DNA from: a virus
Lineage: Duplodnaviria > Caudoviricetes
IMG/VR virus record: IMGVR_UViG_3300020045_004948
Location: 1 to 41,697 of that record
DNA: 41,697 nucleotides
Direction: 5' to 3' (one strand)
Shown one piece after another: positions 4,516 through 40,782 of this stretch. The notes below the pieces were generated by a model that worked only from the letters and a program-made list of their open reading frames with translations, was not told the origin of the DNA and searched no databases. The number at the start of each line of letters is the position of its first letter. Position 1 is the stretch's first letter. Made by a program: the position numbers and the translations under genes.

Positions 4516-4887
4516 TTAGACTAATCCTAATTTATTTTCTTGAATAGTATCTATGATTTTAAAATCAGAACAATATATGTCATAAGGTATAATCTCACTA
4601 TTTCTAACTCCATCTATGATTCTAATTTGATAACATAGTCTTTCTTTATTATAAAAGAATATTCCATTATATTTATTCCATAGTTGAGAATTATTAAACT
4701 CAACAATAGAACTATCGGCATAAATATTTTTTCCATTTATATCTTTCAAACCAATATTTCTAAAATATTTACCTTCTTCAACTTCATATACATCCCAAGT
4801 TTCACAAACATCTTTAAGTAATTCTTTTAAAGTAATATTGTCGTCAAACTGTTTTAGTTCATCTGACCAAGTTATATATTCATCCAT
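4516..4887 (-). CDS. YopX-like protein
   Basis: GLKDINGKNIYADSSIV and KIIDTIQEN resemble the YopX signatures; AAGGAG RBS. Confidence 0.65.
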   Translation of the reverse strand: MDEYITWSDELKQFDDNITLKELLKDVCETWDVYEVEEGKYFRNIGLKDINGKNIYADSSIVEFNNSQLWNKYNGIFFYNKERLCYQIRIIDGVRNSEIIPYDIYCSDFKIIDTIQENKLGLV

Positions 4888-5034
4888 TTAAACTCCTTTA
4901 ATTTTTCTTACTCAAACTATACCAAAACCAAATCCACAAATCAACTATTTAGCTATAATATAAATATAAATTTACATAATGTGTAAAAAGGTAACTGATT
5001 AAAAGTGATATAATTAAAATAAAAAAGGATTAAT

Positions 5035-7755: not shown

Positions 7756-7781
7756 TATAAGAGGGGATTAGCCCTCTTATA
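7756..7781. terminator. Bidirectional terminator hairpin
   Basis: TATAAGAGGG-GATTAG-CCCTCTTATA, 10-bp stem at convergent junction. Confidence 0.75.
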
Positions 7782-8598
7782 TTTTACAAAAACAATCTTT
7801 TAGCGGTTCATCTGAAAAATTAAACAAACTCCTTTGATCTAATTTGATAAATTCATTTTCATAATCATTAGTAGTTTTAAAATTAGGAAACCAATATTTA
7901 TTTTTGATCTTATTTCCTTGTAACTCTAATCCATTAAGATGATCTTCTATAATTTTCATATATTGCCAATCTTCATTAAAATATTTCCAAACATTAAACC
8001 AACTTTTTTTGCTTTGAGCTGGGCACATTCTGCAACCAGTCCTATTGAAGTTTTTATAAAGTGGATTTTCCATTTCTTGATCTAGTAAATATTTTTTACA
8101 ATCAAATTCACTCATATTAAAATAATCTATTAACGGGTATATAAATTTATCTTCTTTCATTACTCTATTTTTTTCATCATTCGTATACCCTATATAAATC
8201 TTATGCTCTTTTATATTTAGTTCTTTAATTAGATCATCAAATGCTTTTACTTTGCTTTCTCTTCTCCAATAGCAAGGCTCACTCCAAACCATTGGAATAC
8301 CTCTAATATATCCATCATATAAAGCACCTTTCTTATTTATTTTACCATAGCACCAATCTTCAAATGTACTTTTTGGCTTAGTAACAATTACTTCTTTATT
8401 GTATCTTGATCTAAAGTATTCTTTTAACTTATCAATATAGACATACATAGATTTAAATTCTTGTAAAGTGTCATAAAAAATAATATAATCAACTGGATAA
8501 CCATTTTTTAATAATAGATCAGTTTGTACTGTCGAATCTTTGCCACCACTAAGTGTTGCAATATAAATTATATTTTTTTCTATATTATGCATCTTCAA
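7777..8598 (-). CDS. PAPS reductase-family (PP-loop) protein
   Basis: SGGKDS PP-loop, IGYTNDE, YPL, RTGCRMCP, C-terminal CFC. Confidence 0.88.
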   Translation of the reverse strand: MKMHNIEKNIIYIATLSGGKDSTVQTDLLLKNGYPVDYIIFYDTLQEFKSMYVYIDKLKEYFRSRYNKEVIVTKPKSTFEDWCYGKINKKGALYDGYIRGIPMVWSEPCYWRRESKVKAFDDLIKELNIKEHKIYIGYTNDEKNRVMKEDKFIYPLIDYFNMSEFDCKKYLLDQEMENPLYKNFNRTGCRMCPAQSKKSWFNVWKYFNEDWQYMKIIEDHLNGLELQGNKIKNKYWFPNFKTTNDYENEFIKLDQRSLFNFSDEPLKDCFCKI

Positions 8599-9351: not shown

Positions 9352-10281
9352 ATGGCAGTTAAAAATATTTATAGAGATATTGCTTTACAAGAAGCTAAAA
9401 CTCAAAGTGTAATGATAGACCAATTCTTAGAAGAAGCTCCAATCGTTGCAATGATGCCTATGGAAGCATCAACACACGGATTATCTAATCTATTTGAAGA
9501 AGTATCAAGTGTTACTGGTGCTGGAATGGTTGATATTGATGATGAATTACCAACAGTAGATGCTCAAACAGAATTAAAGCAAACTGATTTATCTATCTTA
9601 GGTGGAACAATGTTTGTTGGTGAAGATAAAGCTAAAAAATTAGGTGGTGCTGCTGCTTATTTTGCTAAAAAAGAAGCTTTAATCTTAAGAAAAACTGGTG
9701 AAGATGTAGAAAAAGCAATTATCTACAATAACATTAGAGCATACTCAATTACTGAGGGAAAAGCTGAATCAGCTGGTGGAAGCTCAAACATTAACTACTC
9801 AATCTTAGCTGTAACATGGACTCCGGGGGAAATCACTGGATTATATGACCCTAATGGTTTTGGCAATGGAAAAGTATTTGATATTTTACCTATCAATGGT
9901 GGTGCAGTATATGAAAAACTTATTAATGGTAAAAACATTTTAGGTTATGGAGTAAGACTTAAATCTTATTTAGGTATTCAATTAGCTAATAAAAGATATG
10001 TTTCTTCAATCGTAAATATTGACTTAGACTCAGGAACTCCAAAACCTCCAACAGAAAGAATGATGGATAATTTATTATTAAAAGCAAGAGCTAATAGCTC
10101 AACAGTTTTATATATGCACCCAAGAGTATTAGCTGAGCTTTACAATTATAAGGCTTCAAGATTACAAATGAATCCAAATCAAAATGATGTTGATAGAACT
10201 GTTGCAAGATGGAATGGAACTCCTATCGTAACTTCTTACAACTTCTTAGACGCATTAGAAGCAAACGTAACAATCGCATAA
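9352..10281 (+). CDS. Major capsid protein
   Basis: 309 aa after scaffold, followed by a hairpin; resembles BPP-1 Bbp17-like capsids. Confidence 0.85.
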   Translation: MAVKNIYRDIALQEAKTQSVMIDQFLEEAPIVAMMPMEASTHGLSNLFEEVSSVTGAGMVDIDDELPTVDAQTELKQTDLSILGGTMFVGEDKAKKLGGAAAYFAKKEALILRKTGEDVEKAIIYNNIRAYSITEGKAESAGGSSNINYSILAVTWTPGEITGLYDPNGFGNGKVFDILPINGGAVYEKLINGKNILGYGVRLKSYLGIQLANKRYVSSIVNIDLDSGTPKPPTERMMDNLLLKARANSSTVLYMHPRVLAELYNYKASRLQMNPNQNDVDRTVARWNGTPIVTSYNFLDALEANVTIA

Positions 10282-10945: not shown

Positions 10946-11149
10946 TTAATATAATTTATTTAAAAAATCATAAATTATTTCATCAAATGATTTATTTGTA
11001 ATTTCTTTTTTAAATATAATCCCCTCTGTTGCTATAAATCTTTCATTTTCATAATCTAGCTTTATTTTAAAACTGCTACTTACTAATTTATACATTGATT
11101 CTATATTATGCTTAATAGCTTCAATTAATTCAATTTTATTTATTTCCAT
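10946..11149 (-). CDS. Hypothetical protein (67 aa)
   Basis: AGGAG RBS precedes ATG at 11149; promoter -10 at 11177-11172 lies inside the longer track ORF. Confidence 0.65.
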   Translation of the reverse strand: MEINKIELIEAIKHNIESMYKLVSSSFKIKLDYENERFIATEGIIFKKEITNKSFDEIIYDFLNKLY

Positions 11150-11310
11150 TTTAATCTCCTCTTTTTTCTTAATTATAAACAAACTCCAAACCAAAGTAAA
11201 GTAATATTCTAAAATTACCAATTAAAATTAAAACTTAGTTACAAATTTACACAAATTAAAATTAATCTTCTTAATTATGTTAAAATAAGAATAAAATATA
11301 AAGGGCTAAT

Positions 11311-25191: not shown

Positions 25192-25449
25192 CTAATTAAC
25201 TGCTAAAAGTTCAATCCAAAAGAACTTATTATAATTTTTATCTTCTATGTTTTGCCAATATTCACTAGCCATATATAAAGATAAATTATCATCATTTAAC
25301 TCAAAATACATAATTTTTTCTATTTGCCAATCTATATTTTTAATTTCAACTTTTATTTGAGTTTCATCATATTTTTCCAAAGTATATTTAAAACTATCCC
25401 AATCGTTTAACTCATATTTTAAGAACCGTTTAATTTTTGTTTCTAACAT
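25192..25449 (-). CDS. Hypothetical protein
   Basis: AGGGG RBS; first gene after leftward promoter. Confidence 0.7.
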   Translation of the reverse strand: MLETKIKRFLKYELNDWDSFKYTLEKYDETQIKVEIKNIDWQIEKIMYFELNDDNLSLYMASEYWQNIEDKNYNKFFWIELLAVN

Positions 25450-25479
25450 TCAATCCCCTTTAATCTTTTTCTTATCCCC

Positions 25480-25508
25480 ATAATAAAACAAAATCAAACC
25501 AATGTCAA
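25480..25508 (-). promoter_or_regulatory. Sigma70 promoter, leftward
   Basis: TTGACA-17-TATTAT on minus strand. Confidence 0.8.
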
Positions 25509-25545
25509 GCAATCTAACCTAAAAAACAAAATAAATTTTAACAAT

Positions 25546-25560
25546 GTTACTATACTACAC
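25546..25560. promoter_or_regulatory. GTTAC-N5-TACAC box shared by divergent promoters (one of 12 copies)
   Basis: 74 nt from rightward -10 and 75 nt from leftward -10. Confidence 0.75.
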
Positions 25561-25596
25561 AAAAATAATAAATTACAAAATTTAGTAAAATATCAC

Positions 25597-25625
25597 TTTA
25601 CATTTTAGATTTAATGTATTATAAT
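25597..25625 (+). promoter_or_regulatory. Sigma70 promoter of the ncRNA locus
   Basis: TTTACA-17-TATAAT. Confidence 0.8.
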
Positions 25626-25630
25626 TCTCT

Positions 25631-25752
25631 TGTTGTAAAGTTTTCTCAAATTTTCTTTATAACACAGTTGCTTTTAGGCATTGTAACATTCATTTTTCGT
25701 TTAAACCTCCTTTCTTGGTATCGGATAGAATTGCAACTATCCGATATTTTAT
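25631..25752 (+). ncRNA. Putative sRNA with anti-Shine-Dalgarno/anti-AUG seed
   Basis: 5' hairpin 25631-25664; unpaired ATTCAT...TTAAACCTCCTT; perfect 10-bp hairpin 25719-25746 plus T tract. Confidence 0.55.
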
Positions 25753-26028
25753 GTTTTTGTAGTGAGTTTTAGTCTATGTGAAAATGACTATACTTACTGC
25801 AAAGATATTGCAAAAGGTATCTTTAGAGTTATTACCTTAAGTAATAGATGATGGATTTCTTATTTTTGTAAGTTTTTTATTCATGTTAAACTCCTTAGTG
25901 GACTGCCTAAGAACCTCGAACCACATTAAAAAAAGGTGATTTAAAAGCTAGACTGATACTTAATCTGATTAGTCAAAATATTTACTCCGTGGGTTTCTCG
26001 GAGAGGTTGACATAGAAACATCTAGCCC

Positions 26029-26087
26029 AAGACCAGCACGGCTGACGAGGATTTAAAATCCGAAACTTTATAGTACCGTGGAGTCTT
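26029..26087 (+). ncRNA. Type I hammerhead ribozyme
   Basis: Stem I CACGG/CCGTG, core CTGACGA, stem II GGATT/AATCC, GAAA, stem III ACT/AGT, GUA cleavage triplet (cut after 26075). Confidence 0.85.
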
Positions 26088-26145
26088 CCAACTTGGGGAA
26101 TAACTGAAGACCTAGACCTCTCAACTTTCGAAGTAAGTATTTAAT

Positions 26146-26237
26146 GGATAATTGTTCGAGTGGCTTATGAAGCTGTTTTGCTAAAGCAGAGATGTATTAA
26201 AAAGCATCCAAGGGTTCGAATCCCTTATTATCCTCCA
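26146..26237 (+). tRNA. tRNA-Ser (anticodon GCT)
   Basis: Acceptor GGATAAT/ATTATCC, anticodon arm CTGTT-TTGCTAA-AGCAG, long variable arm, AAGGG-TTCGAAT-CCCTT, encoded CCA. Confidence 0.92.
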
Positions 26238-26351
26238 CTTTATTACCAATCGTAACACTTCATAAATTTAACCTCAACAAAAATCAAAAATCATTTACAA
26301 CTTTTAAAAATCTAGTTATAGTTTGGATATTAAAAATAAAAAGGAGTTAAA

Positions 26352-26582
26352 ATGACATTAAGCGAATTAATCAAAGAATATGGAGATGATAGTATCATTT
26401 TTCAAAATTTAGATACCGATATGATTTCTATGGATAAAAGAAAAAATTATTATGAAATTAAATTTGGTACAAAAGAAGGCTTTAATCAAGATTTATCAGG
26501 AACAAACAAAAGGGCTTTAATTGTTTGGATGGATAGAGAAAAAACACAAGCTATTTTAGATAAAAATAAAAAGGAGCTTTAA
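26352..26582 (+). CDS. Hypothetical protein
   Basis: TTTACA-17-TATAGT promoter; AAGGAG RBS. Confidence 0.75.
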   Translation: MTLSELIKEYGDDSIIFQNLDTDMISMDKRKNYYEIKFGTKEGFNQDLSGTNKRALIVWMDREKTQAILDKNKKEL

Positions 26583-26583
26583 A

Positions 26584-26688
26584 ATGATTCACTTCATTAT
26601 GATTTTATTACACTTATGTGCAGTATTTACTTATCCGTATGCTTTATTCTTAACTATCTGCGTTCATTTAATATTGATTAAGAAGTAA
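26584..26688 (+). CDS. Small hydrophobic peptide (34 aa, not in ORF track)
   Basis: AAGGAG RBS; MIHFIMILLHLCAVFTYPYALFLTICVHLILIKK. Confidence 0.6.
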   Translation: MIHFIMILLHLCAVFTYPYALFLTICVHLILIKK

Positions 26689-27422: not shown

Positions 27423-27627
27423 TTTTACACATACTGCTACAATAGTAGGGGTAGCATACAATAGAGGTAGAAAATACAAAGTAAATATAAGATACTTAAA
27501 TAGCTATATAGTAGATGAACATAGAACTAAATACAAAAGAGAGACTGGAAATATTATAGGCGAAAGATTTGCCATATGGAGATTGGATTTAGAAAGTATA
27601 AAAGAAATAGAGGTTACAAATGGCTGA
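27409..27627 (+). CDS. Hypothetical protein
   Basis: AAGGTG RBS before ATG 27409. Confidence 0.65.
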   Translation: MAKNNFTHTATIVGVAYNRGRKYKVNIRYLNSYIVDEHRTKYKRETGNIIGERFAIWRLDLESIKEIEVTNG

Positions 27628-30406: not shown

Positions 30407-30526
30407 ATGCAAACTATAAAAATAGATAATGTTGTATGGAAAATACAAGATATAAAAGGAAATATTTATACATTAAAAAATGATAAATATATTATTTCAA
30501 AATTAATGGATGGTATAAAATGTTAA
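30407..30526 (+). CDS. Small hypothetical protein (39 aa)
   Basis: AAGGAG RBS after promoter. Confidence 0.55.
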   Translation: MQTIKIDNVVWKIQDIKGNIYTLKNDKYIISKLMDGIKC

Positions 30527-31668
30527 AAGATATTGAAATTGAAACAAAAAATATAATTACAAAATTGCTTACTTTAGAAAAAGATGAGTTAATTGAAAAC
30601 TTAAATTATATTAGAGAACAATTACATAAAATAAGTCCATTTAAAAATGAACCAGTTGATTTTGTTAAGTGGGTTAAAAATACAAGTGTTGGAGCCAATG
30701 ATTATAATCCTAATACTGTTGCACCTCCTGAAATGGAATTATTAAGATTATCAATTGCAAGTGATGGATATACTCAACCTATTGTTACATGGTCTCATTC
30801 TGAAAGAGTAGAAAATGAAGTAATTGATGGTTTTCATAGACATAGAGTAGGAAAAGAATGTTTAGATATTCAAAATAGAATACATGGTTATCTTCCTATT
30901 GTTGCATTAAGTGAAGATAGAGAAAGTAAAAATGACCGTATGGCTTCAACTGTTAGACATAATAGAGCTAGAGGAAAACATAAAGTTGATGCAATGTCTG
31001 ATATGGTTGTTGAATTGAAAAATAGAAATTGGTCAAATGCTAGAATTTGTAAAGAGCTTGGAATGGATGAAGATGAGGTTTTAAGATTATGTCAAATTAC
31101 TGGATTACAAGATTTATTTAAAGATGAAGATTTTAGTAGGTCATGGGATGCAGTAGAGTGTGATATTGGATTATGGGAAGATTTAACAGATGAAGTAACA
31201 GAAATGGAAAAAGAAAGATTAAATTTAAGAAATACCGTGAATGCTTCATATGATAGAATTTTTCATACTTATGAAAACTGGGAGTGCTACAAAGCTGGAT
31301 TTTTTGCAACAAAAATGAGTAATTTTACAAAAGACCAAGCAGAAGAAGAATTTGCAGATTTTTTAAAAAATGAACATGATTTTGATTTGGCATTATCTGA
31401 ATTAATTTATGAGTGGAAAAATTCTTGTGAGCAAAATTTATCAAATATTGCATTAAATAGAATTGCGTGGCTAGGTCAAGCAGCTGCTTGTTATGCAAGA
31501 GGTATTCCATCAAAATATAGAGCTGGATGGTTTAGATTAACAGCAGAGCAACAAGATAGAGCAAATAATATAGCATTAAAGTATTTAAATGTATGGTTAG
31601 AAAATAATGGAAGAAAATCAATTACAATGGAAGAAGCAAATATCGCAAGACAATCGGAGTTATACTAA
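30520..31668 (+). CDS. IbrB/YbdM-like ParB-N domain protein with extra C-terminal domain
   Basis: ANDYNPNTVAPPEMELL, DGYTQPIV, IDGFHR, STVRHNRARGKH. Confidence 0.88.
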   Translation: MLKDIEIETKNIITKLLTLEKDELIENLNYIREQLHKISPFKNEPVDFVKWVKNTSVGANDYNPNTVAPPEMELLRLSIASDGYTQPIVTWSHSERVENEVIDGFHRHRVGKECLDIQNRIHGYLPIVALSEDRESKNDRMASTVRHNRARGKHKVDAMSDMVVELKNRNWSNARICKELGMDEDEVLRLCQITGLQDLFKDEDFSRSWDAVECDIGLWEDLTDEVTEMEKERLNLRNTVNASYDRIFHTYENWECYKAGFFATKMSNFTKDQAEEEFADFLKNEHDFDLALSELIYEWKNSCEQNLSNIALNRIAWLGQAAACYARGIPSKYRAGWFRLTAEQQDRANNIALKYLNVWLENNGRKSITMEEANIARQSELY

Positions 31669-32873
31669 TGAGAACTAAAAAATATAATGAAATAAATGTT
31701 TTAGATGCTAGTAGAGAAAGAATAAAAAATATATTTGATGGATTTGAAAGTATTTATATTTCTTTTTCAGGAGGTAAAGATAGTTCAGTAATGACACATT
31801 TAGTTTTAGAAGAAGCAAGAAAAAGAAATAGAATAGTTGGATTATTAATTATTGATTTAGAAGCTCAATATACAGATACAATAAATCATATTTTATATAT
31901 GGTAGAAGAATATAAAGATAACATAGATTTACATTGGGTATGTGTTCCATTATTGCTAAGAAATGCTTTAACAAATTATGAACCAAGATGGATTTGTTGG
32001 GATGAAGATAATAAAGATATTTGGGTTAGAAATAAGCCAATACAAGCAAAAGAAAAAAAAGATTATCCATTTTTTATAGACAAAATGGAATTTGAAGAGT
32101 TTATGGTTTTGTTTGGTGAATGGTACGGTAGAGATACTTTAACTGCTGCATTTATTGGAATTAGAGCAGATGAAAGTTTACATAGATACAGAGCAATAAC
32201 ATCATATAAACATGGGAAAACTTATAATAATTATGATTATACTTCTTTGGTAGAAGAAAATTTATATAATATTTATCCTATTTATGATTGGAAAACAGAA
32301 GACATTTGGAGATTTCACGGAAAATATCAACATTTAAAACATAATGAAATTTATGACAAAATGAATATGGCTGGTGTAAAGTTATCACAACAAAGATTAT
32401 GCCAACCATACGGAGACGACCAAAGGCAAGGGCTATGGCTTTATCATATTTTAGAACCTGAAACATGGAGTAAAGTAGTTAATAGAGTTAATGGTGCTAA
32501 TAGTGGAGCTTTGTATATTAAAGAAAATGGAAATATGACTGGATATAATAAAATATCTAAACCTGATGGACATAATTGGGAAAGTTTTGTTAATTTACTT
32601 TTGCAAACATTACCTAAAAAAACTGGATTACATTATAAAGATAGATTTAAAAAGTTTATCAAATCATGGCAAGATAGAGGATATACAAAAATACCTGATG
32701 AAGCTCCTGAAGATTTAGAATCTAAACAATGGGTTCCATCATGGAGAAGAATGGCAAAATGTATTTTAAGAAATGATTATTGGTGTAAAGGATTAGGACA
32801 ATCTCAACCAAAATCAGATGCTTACCAAAAATTTAAATATTTAAAATCTATTGGTTCATTATCTAAAAATTAG
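31668..32873 (+). CDS. IbrA/YbdN-like PAPS reductase + DUF3440 protein
   Basis: SFSGGKDS, GIRADESLHR, YPIYDW, PSWRRMAKCILRNDYWC. Confidence 0.9.
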   Translation: MRTKKYNEINVLDASRERIKNIFDGFESIYISFSGGKDSSVMTHLVLEEARKRNRIVGLLIIDLEAQYTDTINHILYMVEEYKDNIDLHWVCVPLLLRNALTNYEPRWICWDEDNKDIWVRNKPIQAKEKKDYPFFIDKMEFEEFMVLFGEWYGRDTLTAAFIGIRADESLHRYRAITSYKHGKTYNNYDYTSLVEENLYNIYPIYDWKTEDIWRFHGKYQHLKHNEIYDKMNMAGVKLSQQRLCQPYGDDQRQGLWLYHILEPETWSKVVNRVNGANSGALYIKENGNMTGYNKISKPDGHNWESFVNLLLQTLPKKTGLHYKDRFKKFIKSWQDRGYTKIPDEAPEDLESKQWVPSWRRMAKCILRNDYWCKGLGQSQPKSDAYQKFKYLKSIGSLSKN

Positions 32874-38214: not shown

Positions 38215-38248
38215 ATAGATTATAATTAAGAAAAAAGAGGAGATTTAA

Positions 38249-38677
38249 ATGATAAAAATAGGTTTAAAAATTAAACCAAAATTTGCAACGGTAGCATTAG
38301 ATAAAAATACTACTTATGAAATTGCAACACAAAGACAACAAGATAAAAAATTTGTAATTTTTAATAGATTTAACCAGCCTGAATATTTCACAGAAGATGA
38401 AATATTAGAATATTTTATTATAATAGAGGAAGTTAAAAACTCAAATAATAATCTAAAAAATCCAAAAGCAAGTCATTATAATTTATGGTTAGATGCTGAT
38501 TCTATTGACATTATAAAAGCTTTTTTAACGCAAGAAGAGTATATAGGAGCTTTAAAATTCAATATCTTAAAATATCAATTAAGATTAGGTAAAAAAGATT
38601 GTATTGAGTCTGATATGGAAAAAATAGAAGATTATAAAAGAGAATTAAACAGTATTTTAGAGTCTAAAAAATGTTAA
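38249..38677 (+). CDS. DUF3310-domain protein
   Basis: SHY...SIDII...GALKFNILKYQLRLGKKD. Confidence 0.75.
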   Translation: MIKIGLKIKPKFATVALDKNTTYEIATQRQQDKKFVIFNRFNQPEYFTEDEILEYFIIIEEVKNSNNNLKNPKASHYNLWLDADSIDIIKAFLTQEEYIGALKFNILKYQLRLGKKDCIESDMEKIEDYKRELNSILESKKC

Positions 38678-40096: not shown

Positions 40097-40181
40097 CCAA
40101 CAAAAAATTAAAATACTAAAAAGATTAATTACTTTAAATAAACAATATCAATCTTTAGTTAAATATTATTAGGAGATTAAA

Positions 40182-40782
40182 ATGAAAAATGATTTAATAG
40201 CAACTGGTGTTATATTTATAGCTATATGTTTTGGTATTAATAGCTTTACACATAATTTAGAGTTAAAAAGAGTTCATAAGCTATTAGAAATGGAAAAAGT
40301 TTCTAAACTTGAAGTTATGAGAATAGCGTTAGAAAATGATAGATTAAATAAAGAGTATATTTCTGTACTTTTAGAATCAAGAGAAGCTTTAAATAATGAA
40401 CTTGATGTTTTATCTAATAAGATTCAAGATTATCAACATCTTGATAAATTTCAAAAGGATTTAGCCCGACATTGGGATAAAAGATAAAAAGTTTATTTCT
40501 CTTTTATGTTTTAGCGAATCAAGTTTTAATTATGAAGCTAATCATCAAGATTTATATGTTGGGGTATGTGGAGTTAATGAATATCTTTGGAAAGATTACT
40601 TAGAAGAAAGAGGCATTGATTTTAATTCATTAAGAGGTGGGTTAGAAGTATATAAGTTTTATTTGAATGCAAATAATGGAAATAAAAAGGCTGCAATTCT
40701 TGACTTCAAAGGTGCAGTTAAAAGTAAAAAAGTTAAAAAGATAGTGGATAAAATTTTAGTATTAGAAAGGGATATAAAATGA
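40182..40782 (+). pseudogene. TM + coiled-coil + lytic transglycosylase (SLT-like) gene split by a +1 frameshift near 40465
   Basis: Frame 40465-40782 has no ATG but encodes CFSESSFNYEA...GVCGVN...YLNANNGNKKAAILDFKG and ends in an ATGA overlap. Confidence 0.65.

Follow-up and report, generated by a model that had tools for sequence, protein, structure and literature searches.

A candidate phage small RNA with an exposed seed complementary to ribosome-binding sites and start codons in a sewage phage family

Introduction

A function is known for few of the RNAs that phages make during lytic growth, as far as the available parts of two reports go (PMC4933390, PMC12197685). The closest parallels in design come from the chromosome of Campylobacter jejuni, a species described as lacking Hfq in the accessible part of PMC8687705. 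According to the available portions of PMC8687705 and PMC11187230, CJnc190 and CJnc230 expose an unpaired C/U-rich or anti-Shine-Dalgarno (anti-SD) stretch between stem-loops and pair with the ribosome-binding sites (RBS) and start codons of particular host mRNAs in an Hfq-free Campylobacterota setting, and compensatory changes show that CJnc190 represses ptmG translation. Phage RNAs that block phage genes include c4 of P1/P7 (RF01695), which, in the accessible text, lies in a control region ahead of small genes and acts on icd/ant of its own operon, holding lysogeny (PMC8198154, PMC2864571). They also include P22 sar, lambda OOP, aQ and BTP1 STnc6030, which the available part of PMC12197685 describes as cis-antisense RNAs, each of which represses by pairing with a single, fully complementary target; STnc6030, in addition, keeps superinfecting relatives out. 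PAK_P3 sRNA1 and sRNA2, the latter adjoining tRNAs (PMC4933390), and lambda PreS and VP882 VpdS (PMC12197685) are small intergenic RNAs of lytic growth, for which the sections available propose host tRNA loops or host mRNAs (dnaN) as targets via Hfq and describe no anti-start seed. Cluster K mycobacteriophages share SAS, a strict 13-bp repeat forming an extended RBS before non-structural genes. In the accessible part of the SAS paper, a single copy lies in the opposite orientation untied to a gene start, no RNA is reported, and it is left open whether RNA or protein reads the repeat (PMC3203893).

Here we analyse a phage record of 41,697 nucleotides, the whole of which we call the window. A preliminary description had noticed two units of the form ATTCAT...CTCCTT (units 1 and 2) and proposed that their plus-strand transcript blocks translation. 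The sequence and its predicted fold are best read as a structured plus-strand RNA that exposes an anti-RBS/anti-start seed. Compared by description, unit 1 resembles CJnc190 and CJnc230, but it is encoded by a phage and predicted to target that phage's own gene starts as a class. As around c4, small genes follow: downstream of unit 1 there is a 34-aa ORF whose start matches the seed. The predicted targets, however, are scattered. No Rfam C4 match was obtained, and the temperate context of c4 was not recovered: integrase, repressor and antirepressor families were absent from the 66 ORFs scanned with PHROGs, a scan in which divergent ones could be missed. In contrast to the cis-antisense RNAs, no conserved gene lies opposite unit 1. 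The leader of the accessory genes, AAGG(A/G)G-TTTAA-ATG, is looser than SAS, and the host phylum differs. We found no description of this RNA, or of any Arcobacter phage sRNA, in the literature searched, and the seed is absent from six supplementary files of an IMG/VR candidate-RNA catalogue (PMC10690425), three further files of which may hold its alignments. If the reading developed below is true, a class-wide anti-start RNA would provide protein-free timing of phage gene expression and would explain the common extended leaders of accessory genes, a question left by SAS in the available text (PMC3203893). Further points of interest are the host group, which is of Campylobacterota type and has no known Hfq, the very high abundance of the phage population in sewage, and a short seed that lends itself to testing.

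Results and discussion

Phage, host and position of the locus

The record is a 41.7-kb tailed phage with 28% GC, rated complete. Its structural block (terminase, portal, capsid, tail, tape measure and endolysin) occupies plus-strand positions 312-24672, and genes for DnaD/DnaC-like, Sak and SSB proteins lie beyond 27620 (PHROGs). The phage SSB is 79% identical to the SSB on a Malaciobacter mytili plasmid and wastewater was the source of 24 of the 24 runs listed, from which we infer an Arcobacteraceae host. The phage family appears to be very abundant in sewage and undescribed; two relatives with the locus, G001 and G002, are present in IMG/VR, and genome scans gave no prophage. Hundreds of variant contigs cover 25430-26030, with very high summed depth in virome-type wastewater libraries.

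The window also holds two PAPS-reductase-family genes (in 7777-8598 and 30520-32873), one of them paired with a ParB-like gene; a role in DNA modification is possible.

The locus sits between the lysis and replication genes and between divergent promoters (25508 leftward, 25597 rightward). The leftward one is:

25480-25508, minus strand: divergent promoter TTGACA-17-TATTAT of leftward small genes, kept in G001 and G002

A stand-alone RNA is predicted at unit 1

The following features were assigned to unit 1:

25597-25625, plus strand: sigma70-type promoter TTTACA-17-TATAAT, 11/12 consensus, hexamers identical in G001 and G002
25632-25752, plus strand: unit 1, predicted stand-alone sRNA of ~120 nt, near-identical in G001 and G002
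25632-25663, plus strand: hairpin 1 of the predicted fold, 9 bp, beginning at the predicted transcription start; in a common variant, 25635 G>A, an A-U pair replaces G.U
25667-25687, plus strand: hairpin 2, 5 bp, with an 11-nt variable loop (alignment consensus)
25693-25713, plus strand: unit 1 seed, consisting of a complement of second codons, CGU (25698-25700), 6 nt and anti-SD CCUCCUU (25706-25712)
25717-25756, plus strand: hairpin 3, 12 pairs and an imperfect U-run, stem kept in both relatives

The strong upstream promoter noted in the preliminary description is present, and it places the predicted transcription start at ~25632. From there to 25752, the fold is more stable on the plus strand (z -4.93) than on the minus strand (z -2.53). 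Hairpins of 9 and 5 bp come first on the plus strand, followed by 29 open bases and, last, a hairpin of 12 pairs with its U-run. Variants of hairpin 2 either turn G.U into A-U (25670 G>A) or fall within the loop (25678 and 25679). In hairpin 3, a perfect 10-bp stem (25719-25746) extends to 12 pairs when G.U is included (25717-25748). Its U-run is weaker in G002 than in the window, and hairpin 3 is likely a leaky intrinsic terminator. An apparent tRNA 5' end, seen by eye at a loose end after 25753 in run X2, abuts hairpin 3 in one relative, which suggests read-through of the hairpin.

The seed is predicted to be open, with an unpaired probability of 0.95 in unit 1 and 0.60 in the read-through RNA, and would cost 0.3 kcal/mol to open in unit 1. 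Two marks of an anti-SD sRNA are found here: a conserved C/U-rich seed, single-stranded in the fold, that can pair with RBS and start codon, and, by prediction, a promoter and terminator of its own without a coding frame. A 52-aa plus-strand frame at 25614 was rejected as a gene, as it begins within the promoter spacer and has no SD.

The seeds are in register with Shine-Dalgarno sequence and start codon

Both units were found where first described, at 25688-25712 and 25879-25896. The word CCTCCTT occurs once on the plus strand of the 41.7 kb and its complement does not occur on that strand. First-order Markov simulations of the 349-nt region (n=20,000) produced two copies of CTCCTT 99 times and never both in the register C(A/G)T-N5-7-CTCCTT, although this pattern was defined after seeing the data. 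Aligned on CTCCTT, the two units match without gaps, with CGT of unit 1 (25698-25700) opposite CAT of unit 2 (25882-25884), and G25699 would form a G.U pair with the U of AUG. The anti-start codon originally proposed for both units holds for CAT of unit 2; ATTCAT of unit 1, however, lies 7 nt too far from the anti-SD, and CGT takes its place.

We scored 251 gene starts (70 from the window, 43 from G001, 47 from G002 and 91 from an annotated Arcobacteraceae plasmid). Placing G25699 opposite the U of AUG was the best ungapped register in 100 of them, compared with 19 for the next register. With a longer segment that includes ATTCAT, the CGT register was best for 81 starts and the ATTCAT register for 25. 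The corresponding register of unit 2 was best in 126/251. When the anti-SD was held and the rest of the seed shuffled, shuffles equalled the seed over all starts in 5/300 cases for unit 1 and 0/300 for unit 2. This non-SD effect of unit 1 was absent in G002 (42 of 300 shuffles as good) and in the plasmid (40 of 300).

Conservation in relatives and wastewater variants

G001 carries both units, followed by a different cassette with a tRNA-Gln. G002 carries unit 1 only; similarity decays just after hairpin 3, and no tRNA was found in G002. Seed conservation in relatives, which the preliminary description had named as a test of the RNA, is observed for unit 1 in both. The seed is invariant across the family, so seed-target co-change cannot show inside it.

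Eight wastewater runs were examined as contigs, in which RNA-labelled depth also covers structural genes and is no measure of expression. In four of four runs, 25490-25750 was the deepest part of the stretch, and unit 2 depth, by this rough measure, was several-fold below that of unit 1. The unit 1 seed is the least variable part, while the adjoining loop drifts. An indel-rich wastewater variant rewrites 25641-25693 yet continues into the seed. One wastewater contig alters the anti-SD of unit 2 (25893), and one deletes a base in the unit 1 seed (25700).

We typed 27 variants, those from 25628 onward among the 40 listed of 80. Stem variants over the whole region (n=14 among those listed) kept pairing only on the plus strand in nine cases, only on the minus strand in four and on neither in one. 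All three unit 1 stem variants among those listed turn G.U into A-U on the plus strand. The choice of helices from the plus-strand fold biases these counts towards that strand. Two-sided covariation was not seen among the three full sequences of unit 1.

A scan with hairpin 3 gave six matches, two of them the relatives, and a scan with the seed gave seven, comprising the two relatives and five chance matches. No homolog of the locus was present in 17 further records, and genome scans gave neither a seed match nor a prophage with the window phage's capsid. A metagenome scan with unit 2 returned two matches, both ordinary opposite-strand contexts in unrelated DNA. Searching annotated phages with blastn gave tRNA matches only, and a neighbour-protein scan with a 76-aa ORF gave no result. 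Rfam 15 cmscan found no match at gathering score in the window; at E<=10 a tRNA was the sole credible match in 25400-26400, and the elements of G001, G002 and a further phage, G005, had no match.

The seeds fit the starts of inserted accessory genes

By position in the window, 3 of 31 late-block starts reached -12 kcal/mol or better with unit 1, against 15 of 35 elsewhere. Homology-defined late genes showed the same late/early gap in G001 and in G011, a record treated as a family member even though the locus is missing from its fragment. Inserts were defined by rule as opposite-strand, SD-led ORFs within the structural block, giving 16 from four family records; because their leaders share ancestry, these are not independent and p-values overstate independence. 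With unit 1, the 16 inserts had a median energy of -12.4 kcal/mol, and a set of 99 structural-strand ORFs had one of -6.8. Either seed finds its best partners among the starts of inserted accessory genes of the family; pairing is poor with genes of the structural strand, whose starts have a short AAGG-type SD and often a GCN second codon. On the family inserts, the non-SD part of the seed was equalled by 3/300 shuffles for unit 1 and 0/300 for unit 2, while that of unit 1 had no advantage on structural-strand ORFs (112/300) or on G005 inserts (56/300). These target-class results rest on position- and rule-based sets, and earlier hand-picked sets were not relied on. In G002, 1 of 47 starts reached -14 or better despite the presence of unit 1.

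Small genes with their own -10 and a common leader lie between the head/tail genes of the window (312-24672), G001 and G011. The positions of these inserts match among the three, while the proteins differ per relative.

Net energies including opening costs were computed for 16 chosen starts, among them:

4878-4899, minus strand: start of the YopX-like inserted gene 4887-4516, predicted target, net -17.3 kcal/mol with unit 1 and -9.7 with unit 2
11143-11162, minus strand: start of the 67-aa inserted gene at 11149, predicted target, net -13.9 with unit 1
38236-38256, plus strand: start of the gene at 38249, predicted target, 19/21 positions paired ungapped, net -16.1
40171-40192, plus strand: start of the gene at 40182, predicted target, net -14.8 with unit 1
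26570-26688, plus strand: 34-aa hydrophobic ORF 26584-26688, weaker predicted target, 13/14 seed bases, net -8.8

The DnaD-like start at 27620 had a net energy of -16.0 with unit 1, and the capsid, portal, tape measure, tail and lysin starts ranged from -5.1 to +1.1. The YopX-like start (E 0.0012, below the Pfam cut-off) had been suggested as the target of unit 2. The 11-mer common to the two occurs only at 4888 and 25886, and in silico this start is the best of 77 window starts for unit 2 (-26 kcal/mol). With opening energies, however, unit 1 binds it better than unit 2, which is costly to open and whose net value there is its best. The YopX-like start does pair, but the best fit is to the class of the phage's own inserted and accessory genes.

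Two further starts that pair with unit 1, at 26352 (net -12.1) and 26584 (the 34-aa ORF), have their own promoter at 26294 and are missing from G002. The SD of the 34-aa ORF differs in G001, and no such start lies downstream in G002. This ORF is very hydrophobic, ends in KK and is kept in G001 and wastewater contigs while the preceding gene is swapped; judged by its sequence, it could be a membrane or exclusion peptide. A type I toxin-antitoxin arrangement was rejected as a general explanation, both with the ORFs opposite the units, which are neither hydrophobic nor conserved, and with the 34-aa ORF, which is 0.85 kb away, does not have the matching SD in its G001 version and is missing downstream in G002. 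PADLOC, run on 12 candidate targets, returned generic PAPS-reductase matches and two weak ones only.

A second phage carries an element of the same design

G005 is a 43.5-kb phage whose endolysin is 81% in common with that of the window phage and which lacks the locus. At ~9856-9930 (L212) of this phage, an extended -10 and a hairpin are followed by an open, U-rich anti-SD stretch and then by a plus-strand terminator (z -4.40). The sequence is unrelated to unit 1; the design is the same and the seed is different. Inserts of G005 have A-run leaders, which are fitted by its own seed. The phage's own seed was the better one for 12/16 family inserts and 6/11 G005 inserts when unit 1 was used (p 0.003), and for 13/16 and 7/11 when unit 2 was used. 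Over all non-late genes, this preference was not significant for unit 1 (p 0.13, 0.53). G005 starts scored with the unit 1 seed also showed a late/early gap (1/33 vs 9/40), so part of that gap is a general SD-strength difference. Since G005 carries its own element, it is no negative control. The only control without a gap is NrS-4 (late 6/23 vs early 10/34, p 0.49), which differs in base composition and has six loose architecture-scan matches.

Unit 2 and the variable cassette

Downstream of unit 1, the shared core and the cassette contain:

25753-25846, plus strand: accessory hairpins (25753-25806, 25801-25824 and 25830-25846)
25876-25896, plus strand: unit 2 seed, accessory, with anti-AUG CAU (25882-25884), 6 nt and CUCCUU (25891-25896)
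25894-25911, plus strand: short hairpin CTTAG/CTAAG after unit 2, pairing partly kept in G001
25951-25974, plus strand: last hairpin of the shared core; variant 25955 G>A turns G.U into A-U
26026-26097, plus strand: hammerhead-like element, accessory, read from sequence, absent from G001 and G002
26146-26237, plus strand: tRNA-Ser(GCU), accessory; G001 has a tRNA-Gln at this place

All hairpins of the preliminary description, from the perfect 10-bp stem of hairpin 3 to CTTAG/CTAAG and those between, are in place. The stretch 25753-25875 folds with z -4.53 on the plus strand and -2.26 on the minus strand, and at 25834/25842 G001 shows a true compensatory change, A-U to G-C, with equal depth in run X1. 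The two units, first taken as equivalent, differ: unit 1 is family-wide with a terminator-like hairpin, whereas unit 2 is accessory, absent from G002 and, in G001, has a spacer 1 nt shorter. The unit 2 seed is half-paired in the predicted fold (unpaired probability ~0.5), and the fold of 25850-25945, a stretch that spans unit 2 with its hairpin, shows no unusual stability (z +1.27).

Two short motifs recur in this region. At 25776-25784, in the loop of the long hairpin, the window has ATGTGAAAA, as does G001 in its own, and G002 retains this motif in a rebuilt hairpin; it reads as start-stop without an SD. GTGGACT (25897-25903) is kept after unit 2 in variants with a differing flanking stem; it might serve as a loop bound by a protein, or base-pair with 25771-25775.

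The variable cassette begins at ~25978, and contig joints from 25977 to 26241 occurred in 4/4 RNA-library runs. Contigs skipping 25977 to 26241, and with it ribozyme and tRNA, were present in all four of the runs other than those used for depth; the tRNA alone was skipped in three of the four, and 25749 to 26236 in one. Within the cassette, 26026-26237 is exchangeable, being replaced by other sequence and tRNA-Gln in G001 and missing from many wastewater contigs. As ribozyme and tRNA are replaced or absent in relatives, their co-transcription with unit 1 would be read-through. The hammerhead-like core comprises CUGACGA (26042-48), stem II, GAAA, stem III and GUC (26083-85). The element has no Rfam hammerhead match, and self-cleavage is doubtful because stem I has only G.U pairing next to the core. 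A scan for hammerhead cores gave 73 viral loci (L002-L074) with one compact core, often present two or three times on a contig and located immediately ahead of short leaders; all 73 are unrelated to the window phage.

A trans-acting anti-start RNA is the preferred explanation

We consider it probable, though by no means secure, that unit 1 acts in trans over the SD and AUG of accessory and early genes and blocks their initiation, including in co-infecting kin, with unit 2 as an optional seed. The promoter at 25597-25625 would produce an RNA of 25632-~25752. In the phage's inserted and early accessory genes, the open 21-base seed of this RNA would pair with the start region from the Shine-Dalgarno sequence through the spacer to the AUG. 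Ribosome loading on these genes would be blocked, and virion and lysis genes would be spared. A stable RNA made from an early, host-type promoter would accumulate, so that accessory genes would be damped as infection proceeds; a co-infecting relative would be damped likewise, because it has the same leaders. Unit 2 is probably a second, optional seed built alike, which transcripts reading through hairpin 3 towards the variable tRNA cassette would include. The match length of 14-21 nt fits a host without Hfq, a protein that Arcobacteraceae are not known to have.

A wider and less probable version is an early-to-late switch without a protein regulator, in which one generic anti-start RNA would shut all strong-start mRNAs and virion genes would escape. 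The RNA would mirror SD-spacer-AUG-AAA with a G.U wobble at AUG. The mRNAs hit would be those of inserted genes, of co-infecting relatives and perhaps of the host, and virion genes would escape through their weak SDs and GCN second codons. In the G005 lineage, an unrelated RNA would have arrived at this design and would fit the leader of that lineage.

It is rather unlikely that the RNA is real and mainly directed at host mRNAs, either strong-AAGGAG genes broadly or one defence or metabolic gene. The seed has a perfect CCUCCUU though no plus-strand phage start has AAGGAGG, G002 keeps the seed with few strong phage targets, and starts of the Arcobacteraceae plasmid fit the same register, in 28/53 of the pairings scoring 13 or more. 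With the plasmid as a proxy for the chromosome, however, the non-SD part of the seed did no better there than the shuffles given above, and -14 was reached by 4/91 plasmid starts compared with 8/70 window starts.

We regard as improbable that the units are functionless inverted relics of an insert leader in the 5' leader of a tRNA transcript, with hairpins that terminate or process it. This origin is most plausible for unit 2 and is our main doubt about that unit. The minus strand of unit 2 looks like a typical start of the family (SD, 6 nt, ATG), and an inverted leader would outdo shuffles for free. The fold of unit 2 is unremarkable and its summed depth is much below that of unit 1; tRNA cassettes follow in the window and G001. 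Unit 1, in contrast, has a seed that stays nearly constant beside a drifting loop and persists in G002, where no tRNA was found, and G005 has the same design in unrelated sequence.

Both 15-aa minus-strand ORFs put forward in the preliminary description exist (25693-25646 and 25884-25837). Were they real peptides, the plus-strand RNA would be a cis-antisense antitoxin or nothing, an explanation to which we give very little credence. Each ORF has an SD-like word upstream, the length of the first is kept in G001 and G002, and two weak (9/12) promoter-like sites lie on the minus strand at 25889 and 25814. These sites, however, are absent in G001, and the region is replaced in G002. Among the substitutions listed, 3/4 in the first ORF and 2/2 in the second change a residue. 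The second ORF is truncated to 7 aa in G001 and frameshifted by +1/+2 insertions at 25862, and the indel-rich variant described above rewrites the first (25641-25693). Neither is hydrophobic, and the SD-ATG gap of the first is 12 nt. We reject the peptides as the conserved function of the locus.

The CCUCCUU core resembles the single-stranded anti-SD tail of 16S rRNA, and a very stable small RNA exposing it beside tRNA cassettes might be a decoy that titrates a host nuclease or protein recognising that tail, but this is highly improbable, as in both units the complementarity continues past the anti-SD over spacer and AUG, and it is tuned to the phage leaders; a mimic would need neither.
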